Part shown: positions 5,121 through 56,313 of the stretch, in pieces
Numbering within the stretch: the first letter of the stretch is position 1
Layout: each line of letters begins with the position of its first letter
NCBI GenBank assembly: GCA_964016885.1
Contig: OZ024749.1
Location: 34,658,001 to 34,722,000, forward strand
Reading direction: 5' to 3'
From: Eledone cirrhosa
Lineage: Eukaryota
DNA: 64,000 bases
The notes under the pieces: generated by a model
Databases searched by the model: none
What the model was told of the DNA's origin: nothing
What the model saw: the letters and a program-made list of their open reading frames with translations, nothing else
Made by a program: the position numbers and the translations under genes

Positions 5121-5184
5121 TAGCTATGTTGTACTACACAGCATAGCGCATAGCTATAGTTGATATAACTACATCATAAGGGTG

Positions 5185-10526: not shown

Positions 10527-10679
10527 ACTGTATTTCCCGACGTCAAAGACACTACTTTTTTCCTAAAATAAGTCTCAAAAATCTACCATGCATCCTAGAG
10601 GCCGAAGGTTGTTTATTATTTTTTTTCAAATTTTTGGTTGTCAAAATTAGGTGTGTCCTTGGCGCCAGGAAATATAGTA
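10527..10679. mobile_element. TA-flanked Tc1/mariner-superfamily (Tc2/pogo-like CYGTA terminus) MITE
   Basis: TA-ctgtatttcccgacgtcaaagacac ... gtgtccttggcgccaggaaatatag-TA TIRs. A second copy in opposite orientation lies at 13538-13882. Confidence 0.8.
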
Positions 10680-10824
10680 CCTATTATACATATTTTGCTG
10701 GGGGTTGATGATTAGGTGGTGTGATTTCCATGTATCCGACAGCCTGAGTTCATCAGATAGCAATAAGAGATGTAAACAAGCAACTTCTAGGTTTTTTTTA
10801 TATGAGAGGCTGGCATATATATAT

Positions 10825-13537: not shown

Positions 13538-13882
13538 TACTGTATTTCCTGGCACCGAAGATGCTTTGTTCTCAAGGAAGCATCCTAATTTTGACAACTA
13601 AAAATTTTTAAAAAATAATTGTTTCTATTTTTGGCACAAGGCCAGCAATTATATCAGTGCATTACTGGTACTTTATTTTATCGACCCCGTAAGGATGAAA
13701 GGCAAAGTTAACCTCGGCGGGATTTGAACTCAGACCGTAAGGGGCGTAACTCTATGCTGCAAAGCATGGCGTCCGACCTTCAACTGATACAATAAACAAT
13801 CTTCAGCCTCCAGGACGCATGGTAGATTTTTGAGACTTATTTTAGGAAAAAAGTAGCATCTTCGATGCTGGGAAATATGGTA
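13538..13882. mobile_element. TA-flanked MITE (same family as 10527) with nested SINE fragment
   Basis: TIRs TA-ctgtatttcctggcaccgaagatgct / agcatcttcgatgctgggaaatatgg-TA. The interior matches the reverse complement of 10527-10679 except for an insert at ~13618-13790. Confidence 0.82.
13618..13790 (-). mobile_element. SINE fragment (second tRNA-headed family)
   Basis: ggcacaaggccagcaatt...ctggtactttattttatcgacccc.taaggatgaaaggcaaagttaacc..ggcgggatttgaactc is near-identical to 22241-22414. B box gagttcaaatcc on the minus strand. Confidence 0.8.
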
Positions 13883-13885
13883 TAT

Positions 13886-14735
13886 GTACTGCATTTGAAG
13901 CTACAGACTTTAATCTACAGATATATTGAGAGACTCAGCAATATTAGGTAGAAGTACTGCATTTGAAGCTACAGACTTTAATCTACAGATATATTGAGAG
14001 ACTCAGCAATATTAGGTAGAAGTACTGCATTTGAAGCTACAGACTTTAATCTACAGATATATTGAGAGACTCAGCAATATTAGGTAGAAGTACTGCATTT
14101 GAAGCTACAGACTTTAATCTACAGATATATTGAGAGACTCAGCAATATTAGGTAGAAGTACTGCATTTGAAGCTACAGACTTTAATCTACAGATATATTG
14201 AGAGACTCAGCAATATTAGGTAGAAGTACTGCATTTGAAGCTACAGACTTTAATCTACAGATATATTGAGAGACTCAGCAATATTAGGTAGAAGTACTGC
14301 ATTTGAAGCTACAGACTTTAATCTACAGATATATTGAGAGACTCAGCAATATTAGGTAGAAGTACTGCATTTGAAGCTACAGACTTTAATCTACAGATAT
14401 ATTGAGAGACTCAGCAATATTAGGTAGAAGTACTGCATTTGAAGCTACAGACTTTAATCTACAGATATATTGAGAGACTCAGCAATATTAGGTAGAAGTA
14501 CTGCATTTGAAGCTACAGACTTTAATCTACAGATATATTGAGAGACTCAGCAATATTAGGTAGAAGTACTGCATTTGAAGCTACAGACTTTAATCTACAG
14601 ATATATTGAGAGACTCAGCAATATTAGGTAGAAGTACTGCATTTGAAGCTACAGACTTTAATCTACAGATATATTGAGAGACTCAGCAATATTAGGTAGA
14701 AGTACTGCATTTGAAGCTACAGACTTTAATCTACA
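13886..14735. repeat. perfect 68-bp tandem repeat, ~12.5 copies
   Basis: ATATTGAGAGACTCAGCAATATTAGGTAGAAGTACTGCATTTGAAGCTACAGACTTTAATCTACAGAT at 13991, 14059... with no visible variants. Confidence 0.97.
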
Positions 14736-26499: not shown

Positions 26500-29400
26500 A
26501 CAGCAGCAGGAACAGCAGTGCCACAGTTGTAGTTGTAACAATTGAAATAACAACAATAGCCACATTATCAGTTGTAACAACAACTTCCACTCTACCACCA
26601 CCACCTATAACAACCACAACAACAACAATAACAGTAACAATATCAGCTGGAACAACAACAACAACAATAACAGTAACAATATCAGCTGTAACAACAATAA
26701 CAACAACAACAACAGTAACAATATCAGCTGTAACAACAACAACAACAGTAACAAGAATCATAAAATAACATTTGTATTAATAACAAAACAAACTAGAAAG
26801 AACATCAGTTATAACAATAAAGACATCACCACAAACATTTTTACAAGCAACAACAACAACAACAACAAATGCAACTGTGAGAACAACAGCAACAACAACA
26901 GCAGCAGCAGCAACAACAACAACATCAATATCATTAAAAACAACAGCTTCTGCAACAGTAACAACTGCAACAACAACACCAACAGCAGCAACACTATCAT
27001 TACAAACAACAACAACTGCAACAACAGCAGCAGCAGCAACACTATCATGACAAACAACAACAACTACTACTACAACAACACCATCATGACAAACAACAAC
27101 AACAACTACTACTTCTACAACACTATCATGACAAACAACAACTACTACTACTACAACAACACTATCATGACAAACAACAACAACAACTACTACTTCTACA
27201 ACACTATCATGACAAACAACAACTACTACTACTACAACAACACTATCATGACAAACAACAACAACTACTACTACTACAACAACACTATCATGACAAACAA
27301 CAACAACTACTACTACTACAACAACAACACTATCATGACAAACAACTACTACTACTACTACAACAACACTATCATGACAAACAACAACTACTACTACTAC
27401 AACAACACTATCATGACAAACAACAACAACTACTACTACTACAACAACACTATCATGACAAACAACTACTACTACTACTACAACAACACTATCATGACAA
27501 ACAACAACAACTACTACTACTACAACAACACTATCATGACAAACAACAACAACTACTACTACTACAACAACACTATCATGACAAACAACAACAACTACTA
27601 CTACAACAACACTATCATGACAAACAACAACAACTACTACTACTACAACAACACTATCATGACAAACAACAACAACTACTACTACTACTACACTATCATG
27701 ACAAACAACAACAACTACTACTACTACTACAACAACACTATCATGACAAACAACAACTACTACTACTACTACAACAACACCATCATGACAAACAACAACT
27801 ACTACTACTACTACAACAACACTATCATGACAAACAACAACAACTACTACTACAACAACACCATCATGACAAACAATAACTACTACTACTACAACAACAC
27901 TATCATGACAAACAACAACTACTACTACTACTACAACAACACCATCATGACAAACAACAACTACTACTACTACTACAACAACACTATCATGACAAACAAC
28001 AACAACTACTACTACTACTACAACAACACTATCATGACAAACAACAACTACTACTACTACTACAACAACACCATCATGACAAACAACAACTACTACTACT
28101 ACTACAACAACACCATCATGACAAACAACAACTACTACTACTACTACAACAACACTATCATGACAAACAACAACAACTACTACTACTACAACAACACTAT
28201 CATGACAAACAACAACAACTACTACTACAACAACACCATCATGACAAACAATAACTACTACTACTACAACAACACTATCATGACAAACAACAACTACTAC
28301 TACAACAACACCATCATGACAAACAACAACTACTACTACTACTACAACAACACTATCATGACAAACAACAACTACTACTACTACTACAACAACACTATCA
28401 TGACAAACAACAACTACTACTACTACTACAACAACACCATCATGACAAACAACAACTACTACTACTACTACAACAACACTATCATGACAAACAACAACTA
28501 CTACTACTACTACAACAACACTATCATGACAAACAATAACTACTACTACTACTACAACAACAACACTATCATGACAAACAACAACTACTACTACTACTAC
28601 AACAACACCATCATGACAAACAACAACTACTACTACTACTACAACAACACCATCATGACAAACAACAACTACTACTACTACTACAACAACACCATCATGA
28701 CAAACAACAACTACTACTACTACTACAACAACACTATCATGACAAACAACAACTACTACTACTACTACAACAACACTATCATGACAAACAACAACTACTA
28801 CTACTACTACAACAACACTATCATGACAAACAACAACTACTACTACTACTACAACAACACTATCATGACAAACAATAACTACTACTACTACAACAACACT
28901 ATCATGACAAACAACAACTACTACTACTACTACAACAACACTATCATGACAAACAACAACTACTACTACTACTACAACAACACTATCATGACAAACAACA
29001 ACTACTACTACTACTACAACAACACTATCATGACAAACAACAACTACTACTACTACTACAACAACACTATCATGACAAACAATAACTACTACTACTACAA
29101 CAACACTATCATGACAAACAACAACTACTACTACTACTACAACAACACCATCATGACAAACAACAACTACTACTACTACTACAACAACACTATCATGACA
29201 AACAACAACTACTACTACTACTACTACAACAACACCATCATGACAAACAACAACTACTACTACTACTACTACAACAACACCATCATGACAAACAACAACT
29301 ACTACTACTACTACAACAACACTATCATGACAAACAACAACTACTACTACTACTACAACAACACCATCATGACAAACAACAACTACTACTACTACTACAA

Positions 29401-30346
29401 CAACACTATCATGACAAACAACAACTACTACTACTACTACAACAACACCATCATGACAAACAACAACTACTACTACTACTACAACAACACTATCATGACA
29501 AACAACAACTACTACTACTACTACAACAACACTATCATGACAAACAACAACTACTACTACTACTACAACAACACTATCATGACAAACAATAACTACTACT
29601 ACTACAACAACACTATCATGACAAACAACAACTACTACTACTACTACAACAACACTATCATGACAAACAACAACTACTACTACTACAACAACACTATCAT
29701 GACAAACAATAACTACTACTACTACAACAACACTATCATGACAAACAACAACTACTACTACTACTACAACAACACTATCATGACAAACAACAACTACTAC
29801 TACTACTACTACAACAACACTATCATGACAAACAACAACTACTACTACTACTACAACAACACTATCATGACAAACAATAACTACTACTTCTACAACAACA
29901 CTATCATGACAAACAACAACTACTACTACTACTACAACAACACCATCATGACAAACAACAACTACTACTACTACTACAACAACACTATCATGACAGACAA
30001 CAACTACTACTACTACTACAACAACACTATCATGACAAACAACAACTACTACTACTACTACAACAACACCATCATGACAAACAACAACAACTACTACTAC
30101 TACAACAACACCATCATGACAAACAACAACTACTGCAATGGCAAGAAGAACAGCTGCAACAACAACAACAACAACAACAATAACAATATCATTAAAAACA
30201 ACAACTGCAACAACAGGAACAACAATATCATTATAAACAACAACAACAACAACTGCAACAACAACAACAATATCATTACAAACAGCAGCAACAGCAAAAA
30301 GAACAACAACTGCAACAAAAATATCATTACCACCACCACCACCACC

Positions 30347-32080: not shown

Positions 32081-32295
32081 TTGTTTGACCCGAATTACTT
32101 GGTCGTTTCTATGGCTGTGCGGATAATGGTTTAACCATCGTCTCAGTGTGTTTGGCCTTTTAACTTATGTTGTTGCTCTAGTTCACTAGCTTCTATGGAC
32201 CGCTCGCCACACATCTCGGAAGTTGTTTTTCGCTAATTTCCAATACCCGAAATACGATTCTCGCTAATTTATATTTATATATATATATATATACA

Positions 32296-32609
32296 TGGAA
32301 AGTTATATTTAAAATTGTTGGGTTACAACTAGTAAATATTTATAACTGGTATAAAAGCACTCGACAAATATTTGGAGTATATTTACAATATTAAATAAAT
32401 GGAAAACTATATTTATACAACCATATTTATTTCATTATATATATTTCGGGGATATCATATTAACAATATGCTATGCCTTCATCAGACAAAATACAATTGT
32501 ATTTTGTCTGATGAAGGCATAGCATATTGTTAATATGATATCCCCGAAATATATATAATGAAATAAATATGGTTGTATAAATATAGTTTTCCATTTATTT
32601 AATATTGTA
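32296..32609. mobile_element. fold-back element, family 1: perfect 226-bp palindrome plus ~88-bp tail
   Basis: 32384-32496 is the exact reverse complement of 32497-32609 (centre acaa|ttgt). (TA)n on both sides; homologous to 32625, 45890 and 47790. Confidence 0.85.
32500..32565 (+). ncRNA. minimal type I hammerhead ribozyme (mirror copy on minus strand 32428-32493)
   Basis: Stem I TATTTTGT/ATGAAATA; CTGATGA 32508-14; stem II AGGCATAGCATATT-GTT-AATATGATATCCCC; GAAA 32546-49; palindromic TATATA; UA cleavage site. Confidence 0.8.
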
Positions 32610-32624
32610 TATATATATATATAT

Positions 32625-32923
32625 GCAAAAGTTCTATTTAAAATTGTTGGGATACAACAAGTAAATATTTTTATAACTGATATAAAGCACTCGACAAGTA
32701 TTTGGAGTAGATATACGATATTAATAAATGGAAACTATATTTATAAAACCATAATTCCATTTTTTCAGTTATAATGTAAAGCACTCAACAATACAGGAGC
32801 AGAATATATGCAAAATATTTGCATATATTCTGCTCCTGTATTGTTGAGCACTTTACATTATAACTGAAAAAATGGAATTATGGTTTTATAAATATAGTTT
32901 CCATTTATTAATATCGTATATAT
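32625..32923. mobile_element. fold-back element, family 1, without hammerhead (~105-bp arms plus tail)
   Basis: ~32710-32814 is the reverse complement of ~32818-32922. Tail and outer arm match the 32296 element. Confidence 0.82.
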
Positions 32924-32926
32924 AGA

Positions 32927-33264
32927 TGGAGGCGCATGGCTTAGTAGTTAGAGCATTGGCCTTGCAATCGAAAGGTTGTGAGTTCAATTCTCAGACCGGG
33001 TGATGTGTTGTTTCCTTGAGCAAGACACTTTATTTCACATTGCTCCAGTTTACTCAGCTGTAGAAATGAGATGATAGGGACTGGGGTTCCTATTATTCCA
33101 CTGCAAAGTGGTCGTGGAGGTGCCACGGCAAAAAAGCACCCAGCACTCACTGTAAATGAGGTTGGTGTTAGGAAGGGCATCCAGCTGTAGAAATCAAGCC
33201 AGAGTCAGTTCCCGTCCCACCCTTGCAAGCAGGGAAAAAGCGGACGTAAAATGAAATGAAATGA
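32927..33264 (+). mobile_element. full-length tRNA-headed SINE with RTE-derived tail
   Basis: Near-identical to 20393-20787; ends in (AAATG)n. Confidence 0.9.
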
Positions 33265-36200
33265 TATATATAAAGGGTTGGGAGGACCCTCAGTTGCGTC
33301 AAGGACATGACAACCTCTCCTGTGCACTCAGTGGAACATTGATCATACATAAGTAAGACATAGATCCCTGGCCTACCTGGGAGATCAATGGCTCTGCTTC
33401 AGTACTGACTTGATCTATGTAGACCTTTCCAACCCTTGCTAGTAGGGAAAGCAGACATTAAAACAATGATGATATATATATGTGTGTGAGTGTGTGTATG
33501 TGAGCTCTATCTGTACATGTGTATTGTTTATTTGCTCTCCCATTTATGTCCTATAACTGTGTGCTTCAACAAAAGCTGTCAAGTAAAATAACTAGTGGGG
33601 TTGATATCATTAAGTAAACCTTGAAGGTGGTGCCCCAGCATGGCTACTGTCAAATGACTGAAAATAACAAAAGAATAAATGTATTAATGTGTGTGTGTGT
33701 ACATATATGTAGGTATGTATGTATTAATATATACATGTATGTATGAATGCATATATAAATGTGTATGTATATACAATTGTATGTATATATATGTATGAAT
33801 TCGCTAATCTATGCATATGAATGCATAGATGTATTTTTGTTATTACAAGCATAAGAATATATGCATGAATTATTTAATTACATGCATAACAATGTATGTG
33901 TGTATGTATGTGTGTGTGTGTACATGTGTGTGTATGTATGTAAGTGGTTAGGTAGGTAGGTATGCATGTATGTAATAAATGTATGTATTTATTATTATAT
34001 GCATTCATGAATAATTTGTGGACATTTGAGGTCAAAGAAAGGTTAAATGGTCTAATCACTTGTTCCCTTGATTGTTAAATTGTTAAGGCTGAAAGTGACA
34101 GGATGTTTTTGTGCACTTGGCTGTTTCTAATTGGAGCTTTTGTAAGTTTCTTCAAGTGAAGATGCATAGCCTTGTGGTTTGGTTAGGGTGTTGAACTCAC
34201 AGTCATAAGGTTGTGGGTTCAATTCTTGGACCAGGTGGTGCTTCATATTGCTTTTTGTGATAGGACTGGAGACCCTGTCATTGAAATACCCTAGAAAACT
34301 CTTACAAGATACAACCTTATAGGAGGCTAGCTAAACCTACAAATATGTGAGCTGTCATAACGACAGATGACTGAGGACCCTATTATTAAAACACCCAAGA
34401 AACCTCCTATGAGATACAATCTCATATGATACCATCTGTAAATTTCATTTTTTTTCAAGTTTTGTCCCTAAATTAATAGCCAGGTCTTTATAGACTCTAA
34501 CTAAACTGGTTAGGGACCCCATCCTTGACTCTTACATTTCATATTTGGCATGGTTTGGTTGGAGGCATTTCCTAACACCAATCATTTGACAAAGTGTACC
34601 GGGTACATTTTATTGTGACACCAGCACTACTACATTACAAAATATGCTGGATGTATTTGATTGTGACACCAGCACTATCCCTTTACACACTGCATTGGGT
34701 GTATTATATCATAGAACCAGCACTTACACTTTACAGAGTGTACAGTGTACATTTTATCACCAACCCTAGTCCACTTTACCAACCTTGTATTATAATTTCC
34801 TAATATAATATATATACCAATATCTAGACATCTGTTTACAACTATAGCCTGTTTCAAAGAAAACAATATTTTTTCAAAATCATTATTTGTTTAATTTTTC
34901 TCTTATGGCACTTTGGTTTTTCCCTTGCTAATACTATCAGTTAGTTACAATCAAAGCAGTGTTTCCTTAGTCTCATTTAATGATCATCCCTTTCCTTTTT
35001 TTTTTTTTTGTGGCAAGCTTCTAGAATTTACATCTAAGAGCAGGTCAGCCTTTGGAAGTGCAGAGTCCAACTGGTGTTACATATATATTACCATGTGCTG
35101 TTGCATGTACTTGACAAGCTGAGAGCAGATTAATCTAGTGTGGAGCCCAATTTGGTGTTTTATATATATGTTGTGTGTACTTGATGAGCCAAGAGTAGAT
35201 TACTCTAGTGCAGAGCCCAATTGGTGTTCCATATATATTGCCATGTGTTGTTGTGTGTACTTGACTAGTCAAGAGTAAAGCACTCTTATGTACAGGAGCC
35301 TCAATTAGGCATGGTAGGTGGAGGAAGGTGACGAATTGGTAACAATTGCTCCAGTTGGCTTTAATTCAAACCCTGTCAAAGAGACTGCATTCTTAAGATT
35401 ATCAAAAATTACTTCCTGACAGAAGTTAGTTGTTACTTTGAAATTTTTCCATAACTGGCCACAACATGTTATCACCCATCGCCCAAACCAAACCGGTTTT
35501 TGTTGAATAAGGCTGTAAAATCTACAAAGATCTCAGCCTAGATCAAAAACATTCAGTTATATTCTTAATTTACCAAGACAACATTTACATAGAAACTTCT
35601 CACGATCTGAATTCAACTTTGTCAAATCAGTTTTCTTATTTTTCTATTATATTTTCTTCATACAAAAATGGACGAATTACACCTCTATAATGAAATACAG
35701 ATAACGCCCTTTTATTCAATTTTTCATTGATTAGTTATGCTTTAATTTTTTTTCTTCCAAGTATTCTGTTCACAGACTTATGTAAAGATATGTACTTTAT
35801 ATCTATATCTATTACATCTTTTCTATTAAATAAGTACAGCATGTTAAGCAAACACATTTAACTGATGGTGGCCTTAAGAATCTAGCAGGAGCTAAGCACT
35901 CATAAATGAATGGATGGAAGACATAGAGAAATCATAAGCAAAGTTGAAGCAGTAAATGTTACTGTTGAACTCATTAACCACATAGCAGCCATGACTGCAC
36001 CTATAGGTGAGATGAATGTTGGAATGAACCTCTGTCAGTTTCCATCAACAGAACAACCTGCTTATGACATATGTATACTTAACATAATTCTCAGGGAGAT
36101 TCAGTGTGACACAGTGTGTGACAATGTTGGCCCATTGAATTACAGGTACAGTTCATCTTACAGGCTTCCAAACAGTTTCTTCCTACCCAATTTCACTCAC

Positions 36201-36696
36201 ATACCAAGGCTATAGTAAATGACACTTGCCCAAGATGTCACACAGTGAGATCAAACCTGGGACCTAATGATTGTCAATCGAACTTCTTCACCATTCTGCT
36301 ATGCTGTATTCATATCATCATCATCATACTATTTAACATGTACTTTCCATGCTTGCATGGATGAGACAGGTTGTTACACAAGACCTAATGCCTGTGAAGT
36401 GAACTTCTTAACCATTCAACCATGCTGTGTCTACAGGTGAGAGAAGGGTTAATATGTACCTTTAATGTACTGTCTACTGTGTATTTGGTATGATACTTGT
36501 TCCCTGCTATGGTGTAGATGTGATAAGCTACCATTGTTATTATTTAGCTGGCCATTGTTGACTACTTTGACGTCATCTGAATGTCGTGAGAAGATTTTCT
36601 CTTTTACTAATAATACTGATGATTGTCAGAGGTGAAGATATTTCATTTCTTTTCTTTTATATTTACGTCTGTAACTATTGAATTCAAAATTTAGCG

Positions 36697-36845
36697 TGCA
36701 TGCACACACACACACATACTCATACACACACACACACACTCTCATGCACACACACACACATACTCATACACACACACACACACTCTCATGCACATACACA
36801 CACACATACTCATGCACACACACACACATACACATACTCATGCAC

Positions 36846-36884
<39 letters not shown>

Positions 36885-37080
36885 ATCCCTCTCTCTCACT
36901 CTCTATATCTCACATACATGCATACACCCTCCCTTTTTCTCTCTTTCTCTCACGCATACTCACACATGCATGCTCTCTCTCTCCTATATATATATGAGAG
37001 AGAGAGACTAATTAACCTTTAATGAATATATACATATATATATATATCTATATCTTTATATATATATATCTATATATATA
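36697..37080. repeat. (CA)n/(CT)n/(TA)n compound microsatellite
   Basis: Seen directly. Confidence 0.9.
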
Positions 37081-37240
37081 AGGTCAAATACCAACCCTAC
37101 TACCATCTACAAACTGACCAATGAGAATCAAGACTATTTCTGCTGACAACATTAAATTATTCCTAACAAGCTCATATGTCCCAAGGCTCTGATACCATCA
37201 ACACTATAAACACAGAGCTGGCATATCTAAGAACTGACTA

Positions 37241-37296
37241 ACTGCCTGATGAGGTCATAGCCATTCAATGGCTATCATCGAAATATATATAGCAGT
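37241..37296 (+). ncRNA. minimal type I hammerhead ribozyme in a solo pLTR-like segment (~37081-37345)
   Basis: Stem I ACTGC/GCAGT; CTGATGA 37246-52; stem II GGTCATAGCCA-TTCAA-TGGCTATCATC; GAAA 37280-83; TATATA; UA. AATAAA follows immediately and (TA)n flanks the segment. Confidence 0.88.
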
Positions 37297-37884
37297 AAAT
37301 AAAAGATTATGAGTTCATGCAATTGACTTATGTTTCGTCACTATCTATCTATATATATATATCACATGCATGCACCTTTCACACACTCACTCACTTTCTC
37401 ACATACATACACTCACTCATTCACTCTCTCACACACACTCACTCATTCACTCTCTCTCTCTCTCTCATATATACACACTAATATGCTTACCACTATGCTA
37501 TGGTTATGTAAATGTATTCTCCAAATAGCCCAAGGATATTTATCTCACACCACCTTACACCACAAAGTAAAGCGGTGAAGGTTGATCGTTATTTTTACCT
37601 CAATGCACAATATTCTCAATAAGATGAACCAGAACAATTGTTTTTCTCCTGATTCTCGCCATATCTGGGAAGGGCATTCATTTCTCCACTGTTTCCATAC
37701 CTTCCACTCCTTCAATACTCTCCAAATACCCAAGCAAACAGCATACAATACATAGTTTTCTTCTATGAACATTAAACACACAAACAACTTATGATTATAT
37801 TTTCTAAAGTGATTAGTTTATAAACTAGCAATGTTTATCTTCAAACTATGTTTGTGTTGCTTCTAATGGTTTGGACCTTCATCG

Positions 37885-38412
37885 GCTCTGACGACGAGTG
37901 TTCCAGTTGTTCAGTCAACAAGACAGCCTGCTCATGAAATTAATGTGCAAGTGGCTGAGCATTTCATAAGGCACGTGTGTGTATGTGTGTTGTATGACTA
38001 CTGTTGGCTCTAAAAATGTATGTTCCAGTTGTTCAGTCAACGAGGCAGCCCGTTCATGAAATTAATGTGCAAGTGGTTTAGCATTCTACAAACACGTGCA
38101 CTGCACCCATAATGTAGTTTTTAAGGGAGATTCAGCGTGACGCAATGTGTGAAACGTCTGGCCCTTAGAATTACAGGTATAGGCCATCATATATTATAGT
38201 CTAGGAGGTTGAGTATTCCACGGACATGTGTACCATTAATGTAGTTCTCAGCAAGATTCAGTGTGACACAGCTGGTTCTTTGACATACAGGTACATATCT
38301 GTAACATGAAATAAAGCATCTTACTCAAGGTCAAAGTACCCTGTTGGGAATCGAACTCACAACTATAAGGTCATGAAACAAACACCCTAGCCTCTAAGCC
38401 AAATGCCTTCAC
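37885..38412 (-). mobile_element. tRNA-headed SINE(s), minus strand, with internal duplications
   Basis: gttccagttgttcagtcaac..aattaatgtgcaagtgg occurs twice. Head (reverse complement) gaatcgaactcac...cctctaagccaaatgccttcac. Confidence 0.7.
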
Positions 38413-38416
38413 TGAA

Positions 38417-38852
38417 TTAACCCTTTTGTTACAATATTCCTAATGAAAGACAGTGTTCCCTATGAGTTTAAAATAGAGGTATTTAGTAATATAATGTTCT
38501 CATTATTAAACTGGTGTTTGTTGCATAACCTAACAAAGAATCTTATATAAAATTATGTTGGAAGGATTTCAGATAAATGTAGACACTTCAAGCCTTTAGC
38601 ATTTACACCCAGAATTCTCTCATCTCTTTCTGTTCAAAATGGCCATACTGCTCATACTGATGTTAAGGTATTGTTTTCAAAATAAATAATATAAAAATCT
38701 CATAGATTCAATTTTATGTGAGATAATTATGTGAAATAAAGCCTTTACTGTGAAAATACAATAATAAATATAGAATAATGTAAATGCTAAAAGGTTAAAT
38801 TAAACTGTTTTCTATCATAGAACTAGGAATGGTATAGTATGAAAAGAGTTAA
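38417..38852 (+). mobile_element. MITE family B with nested family A (~38588-38798)
   Basis: ttaacccttttgttac...aaaagagttaa termini. Internal cctttagcattta...aaatgctaaaaggttaa. Confidence 0.75.
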
Positions 38853-40501
38853 TAAACTGTAAAGTTGTAAAATTCCATCAGCGCCTACCATCTTTTCCTC
38901 CAAGTGGTTGTGACAACCCACGACATTTCAAGATCTCAATGGTAACAAGATCTGGTTGACAAAGATCACGTGCTTTATATAAAAAACATGAAATCTGATT
39001 CCATCTCTGAATTCAATCTTTTGGTTTTGAGCAGATTTTTTAAACATAATTCAGTAAGTACGGCATACAGGTAAAATGATATTGTTATCATTACAATTTA
39101 AAGTCCTTCATAAATCTGGCTGATAACATCTAACTGTTCAACAAGAAGTGGGTTCTTTGTTATTTCTGCCTACTGAATCATGTCTTTTAAAATTATATTG
39201 CTGCCTTAATTTATTAGTCAAACAGCTTCATATCAAACATATATTCTGTAGTTTTCCACTTGTAGCTGTTTCATTATATATCATCATCATCATTTAGCTT
39301 CTGCTTTCTCTGCTAGATGGGTCGTCAGCAGACCAAGTTGGTATTCAAGCAGAGGTATTGACCCCATGGATGGGCTGGGAGTCCAAATCTCACTTACATA
39401 TGTTCCTACACTCTAACGAGTGCTCAGCCTGCAACTTGCTTACATACAATCCTGCACACTTCCAATTGCATTTTATCATGATACCAGCACCAGGGAGGTA
39501 TTCATGTCTTTGAGACAGCTGAAGAGTTCCCCTGACTATTTTTTTGGCAGCAGGTTCTTTATGATTAGATGCCTTTCTTATCAACAACCACTATACAGTA
39601 TGTACTGTGTGTGTGTTTATCATGTAAATCACAAACACTAGGGTGGTTATATATGTAAAGCAAAACTTTTTTCAGCTGTTCTGTAAAATGACTGACTGGC
39701 CACAGCTGTAGAATTAACTTTTCTCAACACTAACTTCCTCTCTCTTATATATATGCAATTTATCTCCAAGAGTAGAACAGTGTAGAGTAGTGGTCAGCTA
39801 AGCTAAATCAATAAACTATAAACTTCTAGATAAATATCAATGCCCTAAAACAATGTATTTAAACAGAGTATAAGACAAGCTGCTGCTCTTTAAAGTAATA
39901 TAACTTATTTTATAATTAAAAACACTTGTTTTTGAGAAGTTTAAATACACACACTGATCATCATCGTCAACATCATCATTTAACATCTGTTTTCCCAGCT
40001 AGCAAGGGTTGGACAGGTTACCACAGACCAAGTTAGTACCTAGTTAGAGTCAGTAACCTCTCAGAGGCGCAGAGGTTTGCACCTTGCCCACATGTCTTCC
40101 TGCATTCTACAGAATGTACCAAGTACATTTTATTGTGAAACTAGCTCTAGCACTTTACAGAGAGTATTGGGTGTATTTTATTGTGGCACTGATACTAGAG
40201 AGGTTGTCACAGGTTAGTCCAGACAGAAGAGTCCTCTCAAAACCTATATTGTGTGAGGGACAATATGCTGAAGGATAGTCTTTGTCTCTACACTGAAACT
40301 TTTATTGTATGAAGAAGAAAAATAAAAAAAAACACCTCGTCTTGGGTATATGTTAAAAATGTGAAGGCTCTGAATTTCTAATGGAGTTATAGGAATGCTG
40401 TCCTGACATAACGCATGTTTTGGGTATTTTAAACCTGGCAGAGCCCATCTCTCTCCAGATCAAGATGCAGCCAATTTCTTCTTCTTCTTCTTCTTCTTCT
40501 T

Positions 40502-40552
<51 letters not shown>

Positions 40553-40849
40553 AAGAAAACCATCTCCAATAGTGGAATGGTTCTTTATTAATTGACTTCG
40601 AAAGAATGACTGGTAAAGTTGACCTTGGCAGGAATTAAACTCAAAACACAGTGATCCTGAACAAATATTTGGGCATTTTTTAAATTTGACACCCTAGTTG
40701 CTCTGCCAGTTCACCACCTTGGGTATATGTTATCAATATAATAAAATAGGATGTCTGAAAAACTTACATTTAGCTAAACAATTATACATAACACAAAATG
40801 TCTCTACTGTGGTTAATTCTTTCATCAATTTTCAACAGGCAACATTGAC

Positions 40850-41060
40850 TTAACCCTTTAGCATTTACATTACTCTATATATACTATTGTATTTTGTGGT
40901 AAAGACTTTATCTTACATAATTATCTCACATAATATCGAATCTATGAGATTTTGTTGTTATTTATTTTGAAAACAATACCTTACCAGTTACAGCTGGTTT
41001 GAACAGAAAGAGTTGAGAGAATTCTGACCGGATATAGCCAGTTAAATGCTAAAGTGTTAA
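40850..41060 (-). mobile_element. TTAA-flanked MITE family A
   Basis: TTAA-ccctttagcattta...taaatgctaaagtg-TTAA; interior is the reverse complement of the 23848 copy. Confidence 0.85.
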
Positions 41061-41248
41061 ACCAAATATTTCACATAAAATCAGTCAACCGAATATTATT
41101 GAGATCAACAATTTTATTATGTAACCAGTGAATGAATGAAAGTACAGATTAACTGGGTTAAATATGAAAAAAAAAGAAAAAGTCAACAATTTATAATTAG
41201 GAAGAAAATATTTCTAAATATTTCTAAATAATTCTTTACATCATATAG

Positions 41249-42214
41249 CAGGGCTTCCCAGCCTTTATTCCCCTCTTTCACATGGGAAAAATTTCCACTA
41301 CCCACCTGTATAGTAAATATTCCAAAAGCATTCCAAAAATGTTTGTTAAAAGTTTGATACGGGTTTGTTAGCTGACTTTTTATGATCTAGTAAAAAAAAC
41401 CAAAAGGGAGGTAACAAATAATGATAACTCATGGGGCTGCTGCTGCTGCTATTACCGTATTAAAAATGAAATGAAAGCAAACTTGACCATTTAAAACTGT
41501 ATTTTATTAAATTCTATTAGATTGGGATAAGATGTCACTATACTTTGATGATACCACAAGCCATGGTTACCGTGAAGCTGATACCACATTGTGGCATCAT
41601 GGTCATTTTGTAAATCTATCAATTCTTCCTGCACATGTCTTCACAATCAGTTACTTGAACTTCAAATGGGTTGTTACACCAAACTGGAACAGATGATTGA
41701 TGTTTGATGTTGGTGGCCATTTCATCTATATGTAGAGAAATTGTGTTATTACTAAGTGGAATTGTCTTGATAATTGTGCTAGGTTTCCTTATGCCTTATA
41801 GTCGACAGAACTTCTTCGATAACAAGTCAAAGTAATGTTTCTCCTATAATTGTGGGACTTACTGACTTTTGCAACAAGTAATGCAATGTTGTACACCCTC
41901 AATCATCACTTTTTGTGCTTTCTGAAATTCCGAAATCAACCGTTTTTCACTTTCTGAATGAGGTCTTAAGCTGTAAGAAATATGACAAAGGTTTTTTCTT
42001 CTGGTCAGCATGCTTAGGATATAAATGATACTTTGAGCATAAAAGCTTCATGGCTTTGATACATCAAGTTTGGTTGTCAGTTCTGAGGAGAAGAAATAAA
42101 CCCATAAGATAAATAATCAAATTTTCTCAAATGGAAACATTGGGGTGTCTAAAAATCATAAAAATAAAAAGAGAAAATATAAAATAAGTTTGTGTTAGAC
42201 GTCTGGAAATCCTG
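41249..42214 (-). mobile_element. internally deleted hAT (Buster/Charlie-like) DNA transposon with transposase remnants
   Basis: Minus strand ~41893-41703 reads YNIALLVAKVSKSH/IIGETLL*LVIEEVLSTIRH/RKPSTIIKTIPLSNNTISLHIDEMATNIK (Buster-type LSNNT..RI.EMA motif). It is joined to a C-terminal-like VQEELIDLQND. Terminus CAGGGCTTCCCA at 41249; the other end is uncertain. Confidence 0.8.
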
Positions 42215-42415
42215 ATGACATGTGTTCCAGTTGTTCAGTCAATGGAACAGCCTGTGTGAGAAATTAATGAGCAAGTGACAGTATTCTACAGACATGCATA
42301 CTATTAACGTAGAGTTTTAACATCACATTATCTTTGAATTACAGATATAACTAATTTTTTTCTATCTGAATAAACTGTTGCATTGTGAAATAAAGTGTCT
42401 TGCTTATTGGAAATC

Positions 42416-42616
42416 TACGAGGGTTGGCTGAAAAGTTCATAGGCTGACCAAGATACCCTCATGGAATGACCAGATGAGGTTTATTTTTCCACAAGTCCCT
42501 GGAAAGAAACAATACAGCTATTAATAAGAAGAGTTGAAATTAATGCATACAAGATTTCATAGCTCTAGCATCACTCCTTCATAGTCAGCTTATGAATTTT
42601 TCAGCTGACTCTTGTA
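42416..42616. mobile_element. mariner-type MITE with TA target site, inserted in a SINE
   Basis: TA-cgagggttggctgaaaagttcataggctgac ... gtcagcttatgaatttttcagctgactcttg-TA. Partial second copy at ~62815-62905. Confidence 0.85.
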
Positions 42617-42837
42617 CTTCATGCCCATACAATCATGAGCTGAACACCCTAACTACTAAGCCAAAGATGTTCCAGTCATGGCCATCTCATCTTTATTCCA
42701 GATGTATCTTGTGGATAGATAATCCTCCATCATCTTCAGTTTTAAAATGGTAGAGTGTGGTTTGAAAGAAATATGACTGCTATGTCTAGCATATGGAATT
42801 ACCACAAAAATCTCCTCTTTTGGCTTCTTGTGGTTGA

Positions 42838-43180
42838 TGTTTTTGTTGCTGCTGCTGCTGCTGTCGTTAATGTTGTTTGCTGCTGCTGCCACTGTTGTTG
42901 ATGCTGTTGTTATTGTTGATGTTGTCGCTGCTGTTGTTGCTGATGTTATCACTTCGGTTGTTGTTATTGTTGCTGCTGATGTTGTCACTGCTGTTGTTGT
43001 TATTGTTGCTACTGTTGCTGCTGCTGTTGCTATTGTTGTCACTGCTCCTGCTGTTGATGCTGTTGCTGCCACTGTTATTGCTGCTGGTGCTGGTGCTGCT
43101 GTTGATACTGCTGCTGCTGCTGCTGACGCTGGTGCTGCTGGTGCTCTCTGTTGGTGCTGCTGCTGTTGGTGTTGGTGGCA
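42838..43180. repeat. degenerate (GCT/GTT)n tract
   Basis: Seen directly. Confidence 0.9.
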
Positions 43181-43317
43181 ATGATATTACCTTGTAAAAT
43201 CTCCCTAATAGTAACCTACTTTAAAAAATGTAAACATTAAAAGCTAACATCCTGTTCAGATTTCAGGTGTGATTGCTGGCTGTAAAAATAACCATTCATT
43301 TCCACTCTAGCATTTCC

Positions 43318-44788
43318 GTGTCTGTCTGTCTGTCTATATGTCTGTCTGTCTCTCTGTCTGTGGTGTATGTCTGTCTGTCTGTCTGTCGTGTCTGTATGTC
43401 TGTCTATATGTCTGTCGTGTCTGTCTGTCTGTGGTGTATGTCTGTCTGTCTGTGGTGTATGTCTGTCTGTCGTGTCTGTATGTCGTGCCTGTATGTCTGT
43501 CTGTCTGTCTGTGGTGTATGTCTGTCTGTCTGTCGTGTCTGTCGTGTCTGTCTGTCTGTCTGTGGTGTATGTCTGTCTGTCTGTCGTGTCTGTATGTCGT
43601 GTCTGTATGTCTGTCTGTGGTGTATGTCTGTCTGTCTGTCTGTCGTGTCTGTATGTCGTGTCTGTATGTCTGTCGTGTCTGTCGTGTCTGTCTGTCTGTA
43701 TGTCTGCCGTGTCTGTCTGTCGTGTCTGTCGTGTCTGTCGTGTCTGTCTGTCTGTCTGTCTGTTGTGTCTGTCTGTCGTGTCTGTATGTCGTGTCTGTAT
43801 GTCTGTCGTGTCTGTCTGTCTATGGTGTCTGTCTGTCTGTTGTGTCTGTCATGTCTGTATGTCTGCCAATCTGATGTGTCTGTCTGTATGTCTGTCGTGT
43901 CTGTCTGTCTATATGTCTGTCATGTCTGTCTGTCTGTCTGTCGTGTCTGTCTGTCTATATGTCTGTCGTGTCTGTCTGTCTGTCTGTGGTGTTTGTCTGT
44001 CTGTGGTGTCTGTTGTGTCTGTCATGTCTGTATGTCTGCCAATCTGATGTGTCTGTCTGTATGTCTGTCGTGTCTGTCTGTCTGTCTGTCGTGTCTGTCT
44101 GTCTGTCTGTCTGTGATGTTTGTCTGTCTGTGGTGTCTGTTGTGTCTGTCATGTCTGTCGTGTCTGTATGTCTGTCTGTTTGTTGTGTCTGTGGTGTCTG
44201 TATGTCTGTCTGTCTGTCTGTGATGTTTGTCTGTCTGTGGTGTCTGTTGTGTCTGTCATGTCTGTCGTGTCTGTATGTCTGTCTGTTTGTTGTGTCTGTG
44301 GTGTCTGTATGTCTGTCTGTCTGTCTGTGGTGTCTGTCTGTCTGTGGTGTCTGCTGTGTCTGTCATGTCTGTATGTCTGCCAATCTGATGTGTCTGTCTG
44401 TATGTTTGTCGTGTCTGTCTGTCTGTCGTGTCTGTCTGTCGTGTCTGTCTGTCGTGTCTGTCGTGTCTGTCGTGTCTGTCTGTCTATATGTCTGCCGTGT
44501 CTGTCTGTCTGTCTGTGGTGTTTGTCTGTCTGTGGTGTCTGTTGTGTCTGTCATGTCTGTATGTCTGCCAATCTGATGTGTCTGTCTGTATGTCTGTTGT
44601 GTCTGTCTGTCTGTGGTGTCTGTATGTCTGTCTGTTTGTTGTGTCTGTTGTGTCTGTCGTGTCTGTCTGTCTGTCATGTCTGTCTGTCTGTATGTCTGTT
44701 TGTGTATCTGTATGTCTGTCAGTCGTGTCTGTCGTATCTGTCTGTCAGTCTGTCTGTCTGTCTGCCTGTATGTCAGTCTGTCTGTTGT
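43318..44788. repeat. (GTCT)n-derived compound satellite
   Basis: gtct/gtcgt/gtat units with a recurring gccaatctgatgt marker at ~43865, 44038, 44379 and 44567. Confidence 0.93.
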
Positions 44789-45077
44789 GACGTCACTACT
44801 ATGCTTTACTGATACTATTGTAGGAGAACCATTTGTGTCATGTCACGTTTCAACAACTTCTATTATATCCGTTTTATAATTCAATACTCACATTAAGTTA
44901 TACTTTTATACCAATATTTTTAATAATCTTAAGAACGTTTGCCCAACCCTTTGTAGGAAGGAGGGGAAACAATAATTGTTTTCTACTTTTAGCACAAGGC
45001 CAGCAATCTTAAGGGCAGGAGGAAAAGTCGATTAAACTGACTCCAGTGCATTACTGGTACTTTATTTTACTGACCCC

Positions 45078-45294
45078 TTAACACTTTAGCATTTAAACCG
45101 GCCATAACCGGCCAGAATTTTCTGACTTCTTTCTGTTCAAACCAGCCATAACAAGCTGCTCATAGTTATGTTAAGGTATTGTTCTCAAAATAAATAATAT
45201 CAAAATCTCGCAGATTCGATATTATGTGAAATAAAGTGATTACCATGAAAATACAACAGTAAATATAGAGTAATGTAAATGCTAAAGTATTTAA
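45078..45294 (+). mobile_element. TTAA-flanked MITE family A, adjoining a SINE fragment
   Basis: TTAA-cactttagcatttaaaccggcc...aaatgctaaagtat-TTAA. Confidence 0.82.
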
Positions 45295-45554
45295 TATTTT
45301 CTACTATAGTCCATGTGCCAAATTTATTCAACATAAAAGAATAATTATATTAGCAGTAGCATTTTCTAATTATTTTATATGGGTCTATATACACCTCTAA
45401 ATAACTATATTGTAATTGGTTTGCACTTATCTGCTTGGTTATATAACAAGAAAAAGGGAAGAAATTCTTTTCAAAACCAACAAACAAATCTTTTTGTTAG
45501 GGTAGAAAGGACTTGCCAGTCTGACTGAGCATATAATAAACACAGAAGTACTGT

Positions 45555-45820
45555 TGCCATGATAAGATGCACCCAGTACACTCTGTAAAGTGGTAGTGCT
45601 GGTGCCATGATAAAATGTACAAGTACACTGTATAAAGTGGAAGTGCTGGAGTTACAATAAAATGCACCCAATATATTCTGTAAAATGGTATTGCTGGTGC
45701 CCCAATAAAATGCATCCTGTATACTCTGTAAAGTTGTAGTGCTGGTGTTATGATAAAATGCACTCTGTAAAATGAAAATGCTGGTGGTATGGTAAAATGT
45801 ATCCAGTATACTCTGTAAAA
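45555..45820 (+). repeat. degenerate ~45-bp tandem of a LINE/SINE 3'UTR segment
   Basis: gtgctggtgccatgataaaatgcacccagtacactctgtaaa repeated ~6 times. Similar tracts at ~25230-25360 (+), 34570-34760 (-) and 40110-40195 (-). Confidence 0.7.
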
Positions 45821-45889
45821 CACAAACACAAGGAGAATTCCCACTCATCAGCTGTCTGTGGACCATTACAGTTTATATATATATATATA

Positions 45890-46332
45890 AGCAAAGGGAT
45901 ATTTAATTTGTTGGTAATTCAACAAATATATATATTTATAACTGATTTGAAGCACTCAACAAGTTTTCTGGAATATAATATCAATGATATTAATAAATGG
46001 AAACTATATTTATAAAACCATATTTATTCTATTATATATATCTCAAGGGTACCAAAACTTTGGTACGCTCTCATCAGATAAAATACAAAGTTTGTTTTAT
46101 AAATATTGACATATCCAGGAATGAGACCTTAACGGTTCAAGTTTTAACTGGATACTTATCCAGGTAAAACTTGAACTGTTAAGGTCTCATTCCTGGATAT
46201 GTCAATATTTATAAAACAAACTTTGTATTTTATCTGATGAGAGCGTACCAAAGTTTTGGTACCCTTGAAATATATATAATAGAATAAATATGGTTTTATA
46301 AATATAGTTTCCATTTATTAATATAATTGATA
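45890..46332. mobile_element. fold-back element, family 1: ~176-bp arms, 2-nt spacer, ~90-bp tail
   Basis: ~45979-46154 is the reverse complement of ~46157-46332 (centre ctggata-ct-tatccag). (TA)n on both sides. Confidence 0.85.
46226..46286 (+). ncRNA. minimal type I hammerhead ribozyme
   Basis: Stem I TATTTTAT/ATAGAATA; CTGATGA 46234-40; stem II GAGCGTACCAAA-GT-TTTGGTACCCTT; GAAA 46267-70; TATATA; UA. The mirror copy has GAGA instead of GAAA. Confidence 0.85.
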
Positions 46333-47390
46333 TATATATATAGTGTATAATAGTATGTATATGAATTGCTATGACAATAGTACCAAGCGATGTCACCTTT
46401 GGCTTTCCCTTGGACAACATCAGTGTCATGGAGAGGTGAGACTGAGATACATAGATGACCACTAGTCTTCTACTAAAGCACTCTGTCTGGGCCTGCACCT
46501 TGCAGAGGACCTTTTCAGATGCAAACCTATGGTCAGTTCTTGCCAGAAATTAGCATGCGCCATTAACATTGTTCTCAGGAAGAATCACTCAGCATGACAC
46601 TGTATGTGACACAGTGTGTCTCTCAAGGAGACAATATGCCACCCAGTCTGGGAATTGAACTCATGACCTTACAATCATGAGCCTAACACCCAAACCACTA
46701 AGATAATAGTAATAATTGACAGAAAATAACAAGGAGGGTTTGTTTAAAGGAAATTAAACCTTGTGTGTCAGTGGAGAGTTTCCGTCATTCTCTGGACAGT
46801 TCTGTCAGTGGGTAGCAGCCATGTTAGCTATGAAATAAAGAAACCAAATACATGGCTAAAATATATCTTTCAAATTAAATGAGAAACAAAAGAAATCAAA
46901 ACAAAACAACAGTGATTCAGTTATTTAGTAATTTGATAGCAACATGGTTTTTAATCGATTACTCATGAATTTCTTTCTCTTTTGCTTCTTTGTATTTAAA
47001 AAAAATCTTTATCAATGTTTGTGTCAGAAATCTCTTTGTATCTTTATCTAACAAATTCATGTAGGAGAGGGAGAGAGAGAGAAAAGGGGCTGTTTGTTTA
47101 CCACATAGTTGGTTGCCCACCTTTTTACCATTTTCCGTTGCCATTCTAAAACTAAAATTGTTATTTTTTAAATAAACATATATAAAAATGTTATATATTA
47201 GTTGTCCGTTATCCAACAGTGTGGGTGGTAGCAGTAAAAATTTTGAAAGAAGACAAATAGAATTTGATGTTGTTGTCACATGATCTAAAGCTACAATTAG
47301 GTTCATGTCAACTTTTTTTTTCCTGTCAAAATAATGTTGATACACAATTTTCGTCAAATGTTCATGTTATTGCTGCTATTAATGCTATCT

Positions 47391-47456
<66 letters not shown>

Positions 47457-47717
47457 GTTATTATTAATATTATTTGCATATCCATCTCTCATAACATAAT
47501 ATATAGGATTAATATGAATCTGAATGAGATTTGCTATTTAAAGTAATTATTTCTATGAAGTCAACTTCTAATTAGTCAACTAAATTGTAAATAGTGTAGG
47601 CTAAATAATATCAAATTATCAAATTATGCTTGCATAGCACACTCACATATGTCTGCGTATGTGAGAATGTATATATATGTAAATGTTTGTATATATATAT
47701 ATGTAAATGTATGTGTG

Positions 47718-47789
<72 letters not shown>

Positions 47790-48102
47790 GAAGTTGTATT
47801 TAATTTGTTGGAAGTCCGACAAACATAAATGTTTATAACTGATTTAGAGCACTCAACAAATTACTGGAGTAAATATTCCATGATATTAAATAAATGGAAA
47901 CTATATTTATAAAACCATATTTATTTTATTATATATATTTCAAGGGCAACCAAAACACCATTGGTGCGCTTTCATCAAATAAAACAACCTTTGTATTTTA
48001 TCTGATGAAAGCACACCAATGGTGTCTTGGTTGCCCTTGAAATATATATAATAAAAAAAATATGGTTTTATAAATATAGTTTCCATTTATTTAATATCAT
48101 GG
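47790..48102. mobile_element. fold-back element, family 1: ~107-bp arms plus tail
   Basis: 47878-47984 is the reverse complement of ~47996-48102. (TA)n on both sides. Confidence 0.85.
47994..48058 (+). ncRNA. minimal type I hammerhead ribozyme
   Basis: Stem I TTTTAT/ATAAAA; CTGATGA 48002-08; stem II AAGCACACCAA...TTGGTTGCCCTT; GAAA 48039-42; TATATA; UA. The mirror copy has TTGATGA. Confidence 0.82.
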
Positions 48103-55026: not shown

Positions 55027-56155
55027 CAGGTACACTGTGTATCTAGGTACACTGCGTGTCTAGGTACACTGTGTCTAGGTACACTGTGTGTCTAGGTACA
55101 CTGTGTGTCTAGGTACACTGTTTGTCTAGGTATACTGTGTGTCTAGGTACACTGCATGTCTAGGTACACTGTGTCTAGGTACACTGTGTGTCTAGGTACA
55201 CTGTGTGTCTAGGTACACTGCGTGTCTAGGTACACTGTGTCTAGGTACACTGTGTGTCTAGGTACACTGTGTGTCTAGGTATACTGTGTATCTAGGCACA
55301 CTGTGTGTCTAGGAACACTGTGTGTCTAGGTACACTGCGTGTCTAGGTACACTGTGTCTAGGTACACTGTGTGTCTAGGTACACAGTGTATCTAGGTACA
55401 CTGTGTATCTAGGTACACTGTGTGTCTAGGTACACTGTGTGTCTAGGTAAACTGTGTGTCTAGGTACACTGTGTGTCTAGGTACACTGTGTGTCTAGGTA
55501 CACTGTGTGTCTAGGTACACTGCGTGTCTAGGTACACTGCGTGTCTAGGTACACTGCGTGTCTAGGTACACTGTGTATCAAGGTACACTGTGTGTCTAGG
55601 TACACTGCATGACGACTAGGTACACTGTGTGTCTAGGTACACTGCGTGTCTAGGTACACTGTGTCTAGGTACACTGTGTGTCTAGGTACACTGTGTGTCT
55701 AGGTATACTGTGTGTCTAGGTACACTCTGTATCTAGGTACACTCTGTGTCTAGGTACACTGTGTATTTAGGTACACTGTGTGTCTAGGTACACTGTGTGT
55801 CTAGGTACACTCTGTATCTAGGTACACTCTGTGTCTAGGTACACTGTGTATCTAGGTACACTGTGTGTCTAGGTACACTGTGTATCTAGGTACACTGTGT
55901 GTCTAGGTACAGTGCGTGTCTAGGTACAGTGCGTGTCTAGGTACACTGCATGTCTAGGTACACTGCGTGTCTAGGTACACTGTGTCTAGGTACACTGTGT
56001 GTCTAGGTACACTGCGTCTCTAGGTACACTGTGTCTAGGTACAGTGCGTGTCTAGGTACACTGTGTGTCTAGGGTTCACTGCGTGTCTAGGTACACTGTG
56101 TGTCTAGGTACATTGTGTGTCTAGGTACACTGAATGTCTTGGTACACTGTGTATC
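55027..56155. repeat. 17-bp quasi-palindromic minisatellite, ~65 copies
   Basis: CTAGGTACACTGTGTGT with period 17; 15-bp variants are present. Confidence 0.96.
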
Positions 56156-56313
56156 TCCTCAACACTGCTGAGATGTGGTAGTTATGATCGAATCTTGTCA
56201 ATCTATCAGGGCTTGTGAGCTGAGGTTACCCGGCAACTATTACTACTACCACTACTGTTACAAATAATAATAATAATACTGCAACAGCTGATTAAGTTCC
56301 TTCTATAAACATG

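Follow-up and report, generated by a model that had tools for sequence, protein, structure and literature searches.

A 64,000-nt stretch of the Eledone cirrhosa genome (contig OZ024749.1, positions 34,658,001 to 34,722,000; the window) contains type I hammerhead ribozyme motifs that are almost certainly those of Penelope-like elements. Their common feature is a one-base internal loop at the fourth position of stem II, in which C10.4 is unpaired and faces C, A or U at position 11.4 (C·H). An earlier note, made from the letters of the window, had pointed to four copies that differ in stem II and share a C-C opposition at this position, and had proposed that the opposition defines a hammerhead subclass. 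The subclass is real; its better definition is not C·C but an invariant, unpaired C10.4 opposite C, A or U.

When the window was read directly, the stem II readings and coordinates of the four copies (at 32515, 37253, 46241 and 48009) were as noted, and all four have C·C at position 4. The motifs lie on the plus strand at 32496..32569 (lineage A1; core 32508, C10.4 32518, C11.4 32542, predicted cut after 32557), 37234..37303 (B1; core 37246, C10.4 37256, C11.4 37276, cut after 37291), 46222..46290 (A3; core 46234, C10.4 46244, C11.4 46263, cut after 46278) and 47990..48062 (A4; core 48002, C10.4 48012, C11.4 48035, cut after 48050). Pairs 1–7 of stem II read AC GC GC CC AU UA AU, GC GU UA CC AU UA AU, GU AU GC CC GC UA AU and AU AU GC CC AC CG AU, respectively, so that the non-standard pairs besides position 4 are the A·C at the first pair of the 32515 copy and the A·C at the fifth pair of the 48009 plus-strand copy. 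Each copy has CUGAUGA and GAAAUAUAUAUA; stem I flanks the core, and A17 comes directly after the 8-nt palindrome AUAUAUAU, the arrangement of a type I hammerhead. The invariance claimed for CUGAUGA, GAAAUAUAUAUA and C·C thus holds for the four window copies; outside the window, C·C and AUAUAUAU are not strict. A covariance model built from 18 lineage representatives (R1) found eight window copies at E < 1e-6, three of which were in its training set, together with one weak match, and C·C is kept in all eight, the four noted and four more. The looser pattern CTGATGA-N10-40-GAAA gave 10 matches in the window against 1.34 expected, and Rfam models at the gathering threshold gave no match there.

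Across the whole 3.0-Gb genome (individual matches were inspected among the first 100 listed per search), the pattern CTGATGA-N18-48-GAAATATATAT gave 29,113 matches, compared with 51 for a reversed control; some 29,000 such motifs in one genome escape Rfam. Enrichment of C-C in a larger set had been named beforehand as the test of the C-C claim, and C was found at both position-4 sites in 25,784 of these matches (88.6%). Other states were C-G (172), C·A (534), A or G opposite C (490) and neither base C (186, compared with 39 in the control), which by subtraction leaves 1,947 for C·T and T·C. Among the matches listed, C-G and G-C copies occurred, as expected of single mutations, scattered through the lineages that also supply the C·C copies; lineage D contributed 2 of the first 100 C-G matches, and no amplified lineage had a Watson–Crick pair at position 4. 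About one third of the C·A matches listed belonged to lineage E and several to the short-stemmed lineage A7; C·A was present in 15 of 16 fetched E copies and 4 of 5 A7 copies, a sample biased by being drawn from the C·A list, and lineage E was rare in the C·C list. The pattern misses lineages with another stem III, namely J (AUAUGUAU), N (AUGAUCAU, with C·C) and M (AUGCGCAU), and eight local copies of lineage M comprised five C·U, one U·U, one C·A and one C-G. Genome counts put decay after insertion at about 6% per site for the two position-4 sites, and decay over the rest of the motif was about 3% in a biased sample of 13 copies. Because the motifs are ends of Penelope-like retroelements, the copies are not 25,000 independent observations, and the counts mostly reflect a few master elements and their neutral decay.

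The same question was put at the level of lineages, each represented by one natural copy that was hand-picked, from 137 distinct clustered copies and other loci seen, to show the lineage's usual position-4 state; a lineage F row with G at 10.4, which came from a mutant-selected list, was swapped for a C·C copy before the final alignment. Standard pairs filled 87.2% of 288 cells in this 18-lineage alignment. Cells changed on both sides numbered 66, compared with 21.7 in shuffles (a control inflated by the relatedness of the rows) and 5–13 in slid controls; none of 500 shuffles reached the score, and both-side changes occurred in 13 of the 16 pairs of stems I–III. The proposed selection on RNA structure is supported by this covariation in all three stems. 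Stem II pairs were standard in 18/18 rows at 10.2, 10.3 and 10.6, in 17/18 at 10.5 and in 16/18 at 10.7, and pair 10.1–11.1 was standard in 12/18 and non-standard in 6/18, with G-C in only 3/18. Pair 10.4–11.4 was standard in none, 10.4 being C in all 18 rows and 11.4 being C in 15, A in 2 and U in 1; the following base, 10.5, was a purine in all 18. The columns of the core (CUGANGA...GAAA...UH, in type I order) were likewise invariant, with N17 being A in 16 lineages and C in 2, and stem III varied among AUAUAUAU, AUAUGUAU, AUGCGCAU and AUGAUCAU, always as a palindrome. A register with an extra base after A9 was tried by eye and did not pair. By parsimony, on a tree of the 18 rows and 88 columns that left out columns 10.4 and 11.4, 10.4 required no change, compared with 5, 2, 3, 5 and 4 changes at 10.2, 10.3, 10.5, 10.6 and 10.7, and 11.4 changed three times and never to G. 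From this pattern of substitution, we consider it quite probable that C10.4 is under constraint.

The elements that carry these hammerheads were reconstructed from longer copies. In locus L470, two direct repeats of 390 nt, 96.7% alike and 3,676 nt apart, flank a broken open reading frame (ORF) for reverse transcriptase (RT) and endonuclease, and each repeat contains a C·C hammerhead of the lineage of the window copy at 48002 (A4); in L277, the 5′ repeat is also present with its hammerhead damaged. Longer copies contain a single ORF that encodes an RT with YRDD and DKT motifs, a CxCX5C linker and, at the C terminus, a nuclease that bears CxxC and CxH, followed by a 3′ untranslated region of about 1.1–2.2 kb. 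DKT was found in lineages A1, B1 and J; the A1 protein has the motifs CNCRDRSKC, CDLC..E and CRH, and B1 likewise. An RWR motif stands upstream of the long frame of L277, which represents the one lineage whose N terminus was recovered; the Hydra clade has an N-terminal RWK. A Pfam search with two A1 frames gave no match.

Links between protein and hammerhead were established by choosing loci by their coding region and then inspecting the downstream DNA. The A1 ORF (window copy 32508) was linked to the hammerhead in L041–L043. For B1 (window copy 37246), a hammerhead was found 1.0–1.3 kb downstream in 9 of 14 endonuclease-selected loci, the query's own locus included, and eight of these nine were C·C and one was mis-registered through a deletion. 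For A5, 10 of 12 loci had a hammerhead (five C·C, one mis-registered, one C·A, one A·A, one truncated and the query's own, C-G), and for J, all eight loci had one, each with C·C and stem III AUAUGUAU. Endonuclease fragments adjoining hammerheads in L056 (lineage F), L238 (C), L282 (E) and L061 (A4) were rejected as belonging to other insertions, which leaves lineages C, D, E, F, M, N, O and A6–A8 without a protein link; the fragment in L061 led to lineage J.

In a tree restricted to frames from this genome and 19 database relatives that share their motifs, the A1, A5, J and B1 proteins form one clade (support 96/89); the A5 sequence covers just one third of the columns, and B1 is compositionally biased. 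A1 and B1 are 41% identical over the RT and 34% over the C-terminal part, and J is 50% identical to A1. Of 30 loci of a sister family (H2), which is 36% identical to A1 and falls outside this clade, 23 carry a short-stemmed hammerhead that lacks C·C. Given one clade, deep divergence of its proteins and a sister family without C·C, the feature arose once, is old and is probably constrained. The only relative from a named organism in the database was an Argonauta hians protein, and one database relative is titled 'GATA zinc finger domain-containing protein 14-like', which is probably a mis-annotation. The proteins of B1 and of family K (L325), to which no hammerhead was assigned, contain low-complexity insertions of about 130–250 amino acids between the RT thumb and the linker (L277 1037-3577; L323–L325), and these long insertions partly account for the low overall identity of B1 and K.

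In the window, (TA)n runs bound all five insertions that could be delimited, as they do most loci examined outside it. The copies at 32515, 46241 and 48009 are relatives, with flanks about 80–88% alike, and each is one arm of a 115–177-nt inverted repeat whose other arm carries a minus-strand copy; the 37253 copy, whose flanks the earlier note had found unrelated, is the only separate lineage. The A1 insertion (32294..32607), 5′-truncated and inverted, has 119-nt arms that are 99% complementary, is 91–94% identical to the full-ORF copy L041, carries the longer 'tail' end on its left arm and has an identical hammerhead motif at 32424..32497 on the minus strand. The B1 insertion (37081..37341, plus strand), also 5′-truncated, matches L227, which carries the endonuclease region, at 96% over 282 nt. 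The inverted insertions of A3 (45890..46329; 177-nt arms, 98% complementary) and A4 (47790..48102; 115-nt arms, 94% complementary) have minus-strand motifs at 46021..46089 and 47918..47990, respectively, in which the core has decayed (GAG for GAA; U for C3) and C·C is kept. An eighth motif, of another lineage, lies on the minus strand at 10673..10768 (38.5 bits with model R1); its stem II starts ACU-C, G12 is lost and C·C is kept. Adjoining the A1 insertion in a (TA)n run, a second inverted group A insertion (32625-32916) consists of tail and 3′ flank without a hammerhead and has instead a second copy of a tail motif described below, as in the 5′ leader of full-length elements, an arrangement that suggests a template jump.

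Among the first 100 listed places in the genome, hammerhead pairs within 5 kb comprised 15 divergent inverted, 4 convergent and 1 direct (3.7 kb apart, with an ORF between). Genomic copies end about 50 or about 140–150 nt beyond the predicted cut with the hammerhead intact, which indicates that uncut RNA gets copied. Contig depth in four runs rose across the 3′ flank and showed no step at the predicted cut, and two other organisms yielded only 6 and 1 contigs, one with a G beside the loop at 46264; we draw no conclusion from either. The motif CTCC...GTTGAGTGCT, which lies about 70–110 nt beyond the predicted cut, is conserved in groups A, B, C and J despite differing flanks (window 32350-32376; L470 878 and 4554; L471; L472); in the 5′ leader, a second occurrence follows about 77 nt later. 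The motif is located between the two 3′ ends of insertions and is a candidate protein-binding or priming signal.

Why would C10.4 stay unpaired? The explanation that we favour, at slightly less than an even chance, is that the C·H loop could serve as a docking site between stem I and stem II. A tandem transcript would carry a pair of hammerheads, spaced about 3.7 kb apart, that join through stem III and are predicted to cut only as dimers; within each hammerhead, stem I would lie beside stem II, and the C·H loop, about where the canonical loop 2 begins, would stand in for the missing loop 2 contact, so that cutting would free unit-length RNA. Selection would act on active master elements, the window copies being truncated by-products, and in three window insertions the antisense arm would mask the ribozyme. 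The dimer part of this model fits a stem III that is unstable within one molecule (hairpin +4.7 kcal/mol) and stable between two (self-duplex -2.2 to -10.5 kcal/mol) and that occurs as four palindromes. Minimum-energy folding of monomers did not return the hammerhead fold (z 0.03 to -2.78), as expected with an unstable stem III. The commonest palindrome, AUAUAUAU (for example, window 32549-32556), is shared by most lineages and equals the (TA)n target sequence, which makes mixed dimers or pairing with transcribed (AU)n possible; in L241, L242 and L257, stem III passes straight into a (TA)n tract, as if it were an insertion or slippage site too.

Docking at the C·H loop is favoured by its near-right height and by the retention of U1.7. 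In fast hammerheads, the stem II loop touches stem I (PMC3088659), and U1.7 is the base of a known Hoogsteen contact with the last A of loop 2 (PMC11875169). Because stem II extends 4–14 pairs past position 4 in the present motifs, its end loop is out of stem I's reach. U1.7 is present in 14 of 18 rows and in seven of eight major groups, with two changes compared with four to six at 1.4–1.6, 1.8 and 1.9. Several observations weigh against docking. The 18 lineages have neither a conserved G in the flanks of stem I nor a conserved unpaired stem I partner for C10.4. Group A offers A2.7 as a pairing partner for U1.7 and allows stem I to continue without a bulge; in group B, position 1.7 is A (21 of 24 copies), yet C·C is retained. 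Position 11.4 is an A, the known partner of U1.7, in just 2 of 18 lineages. The C·H loop is one pair nearer the core than the canonical loop 2, and other Penelope-like hammerheads, including that of the sister family H2, are without the loop. U-rich flanks and related lineages make the U1.7 signal modest, and the Poisson chance of zero changes at 10.4 at a neighbour-like rate is about 0.02 on a small, hand-picked tree.

A rather unlikely alternative is that the C·H loop marks the RNA for the element's RT–endonuclease or for a host protein, whose binding to stem II would aid folding or load the RNA. The only Penelope-like hammerhead that has been tested with its own protein, that of an anole element, cuts only when the protein is added (PMC11167929), which fits such recognition, as do a motif that tracks one protein clade and a base that is fixed on one side only, as a read-out would be; protein recognition would also account for the group B loop without U1.7. 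However, the proteins have drifted to 35–50% identity with the C unmoved, the RNA needed for insertion lies within the first 172 nt of the ORF (PMC11167929), and the second conserved motif in the tail, CTCC...GTTGAGTGCT, is the better candidate for a protein site. It is improbable that the mismatch is instead a brake or hinge that weakens the base of stem II and slows the ribozyme, leaving uncut template RNA, in which case C·C, C·A and C·U may also confer pH or metal sensitivity. Uncut RNA is copied here, as for the anole element (PMC11167929), and pair 10.1–11.1 is weak too; any mismatch anywhere would do for a brake, however, and the fixed 5′ C, its fixed position and the purine that follows it in all 18 lineages are left unexplained.

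The mismatch might also be a neutral relic that all lineages inherited from an ancestor, which we regard as distinctly improbable. The protein-linked lineages do form one clade, decay after insertion at the two position-4 sites equals or exceeds that of the rest of the motif, and other hammerheads function without the mismatch, but all other stem positions changed repeatedly with compensation, and 11.4 changed three times without ever giving a G. A contact made by the C·C loop between the two ribozymes of a dimer, which the earlier note had suggested, is very unlikely. Dimerization through stem III is itself well supported, with four palindromes, but in the hammerhead fold as described (PMC7229834) stem II stacks on stem III and would point away from the partner, and the two cores, pointing apart across stem III, would leave position 4 far from the second core.

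If docking through the C·H loop is true, it would be a third kind of tertiary stabilization beside loop–loop contacts and pseudoknots and the first peripheral contact in Penelope-like hammerheads, and it would offer a compact stabilization for hammerheads with a long stem II, often needed in engineered ribozymes. If the loop is a protein mark, the RNA signal of a Hydra-type element would have been located. A non-core base that varies no more than the core does, in lineages whose proteins are about 40% identical, offers a single-base way into the question of why Penelope-like hammerheads are slow and minimal. The natural series of C·C, C·A and C·U, in which U1.7 is present or absent and stem III takes any of four palindromes, provides ready test constructs.

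Other hammerheads occur in the same genome. The H2 family is abundant and Hydra-type (L198, L222, L326; G000:C2:68299584-68302826 and others); its very small hammerhead lies about 210 nt after the nuclease region, with a stem II of U·U and two C-G pairs and stem III ACAAUUGU. A hammerhead-like motif seen in a single Hydra-type copy (L282, minus strand, about 950 nt beyond the end of the ORF) has the core CUGAAAA rather than CUGANGA, a long stem II and a stem I of four pairs. L325 carries, about 2.7 kb beyond its ORF, a classic minimal hammerhead of another family, with an extra base after A9, an unbroken 6-pair stem II and no stem III palindrome. The window also contains long homogeneous minisatellite arrays at 5180-7092, 13879-14735, 26989-30134 and 55028-56156, with units of 46, 68, 42 and 17 nt, respectively, and 89–99% matches. 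In viral contigs, 93 distinct matches in 120 loci included none with C·C among the matches listed; in metagenome contigs, a C·C-requiring pattern gave at least 115 matches, of which three had a passable stem II and none had a stem I beyond one pair, and model R1 on 100 of the 115 loci scored at best 32 bits, with stems broken. Both results cover only the matches listed, so absence of the motif from these collections is not established.

Penelope-like hammerheads are slow in vitro. Lünse, Weinberg and Breaker (2017) reportedly described small, Penelope-associated hammerhead variants with a short stem III that cut as dimers. Our full-text literature searches found no description of the C·H motif, and the 2017 study may already show it. 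We think it possible, though doubtful, that a subclade of Penelope-like retroelements has evolved a new architecture, not yet in print, whose long stem II carries a C·H loop of one base in place of loop 2 as the docking site for stem I. According to a 2020 review (PMC7761336), Penelope-like hammerheads are minimal variants that lack the usual tertiary contacts and have an unknown role. At position 4, C·C is absent from all 56 rows of Fig. S3 of Cervera and de la Peña 2014 (PMC4209133), where one sea urchin row reads C·A and one fluke row U·U. The 26 Hydra rows in File S2 of Craig et al. 2021 (PMC8557442) include neither a position-4 C·C nor a AUAUAUAU stem III; the published sets come from descriptors requiring paired stems and are therefore biased against such loops.

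The present motifs resemble the minimal Penelope-like hammerheads of PMC4209133 in their terminal repeats, long stem II, palindromic stem III that requires dimers, thousands of truncated copies in families and opposite-strand pairs 100–700 nt apart, and differ from them in having no extra base between A9 and 10.1, no conserved G10.1–C11.1, an 8-nt stem III palindrome and a fixed 1 × 1 loop at 10.4. With the Hydra clade (PMC8557442, including Hydra-1_Obim), the elements share DKT, the CxCX5C linker, CxxC and CxH around E and N in a GIY-YIG-type nuclease, (TA)n targets, inverted 5′-truncated copies, tails and a hammerhead near the 3′ end, and with some of its families a U·U at 10.1–11.1, whereas Hydra-clade elements are generally shorter than 3 kb in total and L470 measures 3,676 nt from repeat to repeat. 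The two-ended 'tail' pattern of copy ends is like that of Penelope-like elements in PMC11167929. Canonical type I hammerheads (of the Schistosoma mansoni type and of animal retrozymes) have the same topology and core, have a U at 1.7, which is present here in most lineages, absent from group B and open to Watson–Crick pairing in group A, and close loop 2 with an apposition that the C·A of two lineages resembles; they differ in a 4-bp stem II with a terminal loop and a bulged stem I, compared with a stem II of 4–14 pairs beyond the loop and a stem I that is often unbulged. Unlike animal retrozymes, which are non-coding tandem repeats of 170–400 nt, the elements described here encode a protein and are not short tandem repeats. 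The C·H loop is real, old and probably under selection, and it belongs to a known ribozyme class within a known group of retroelements.

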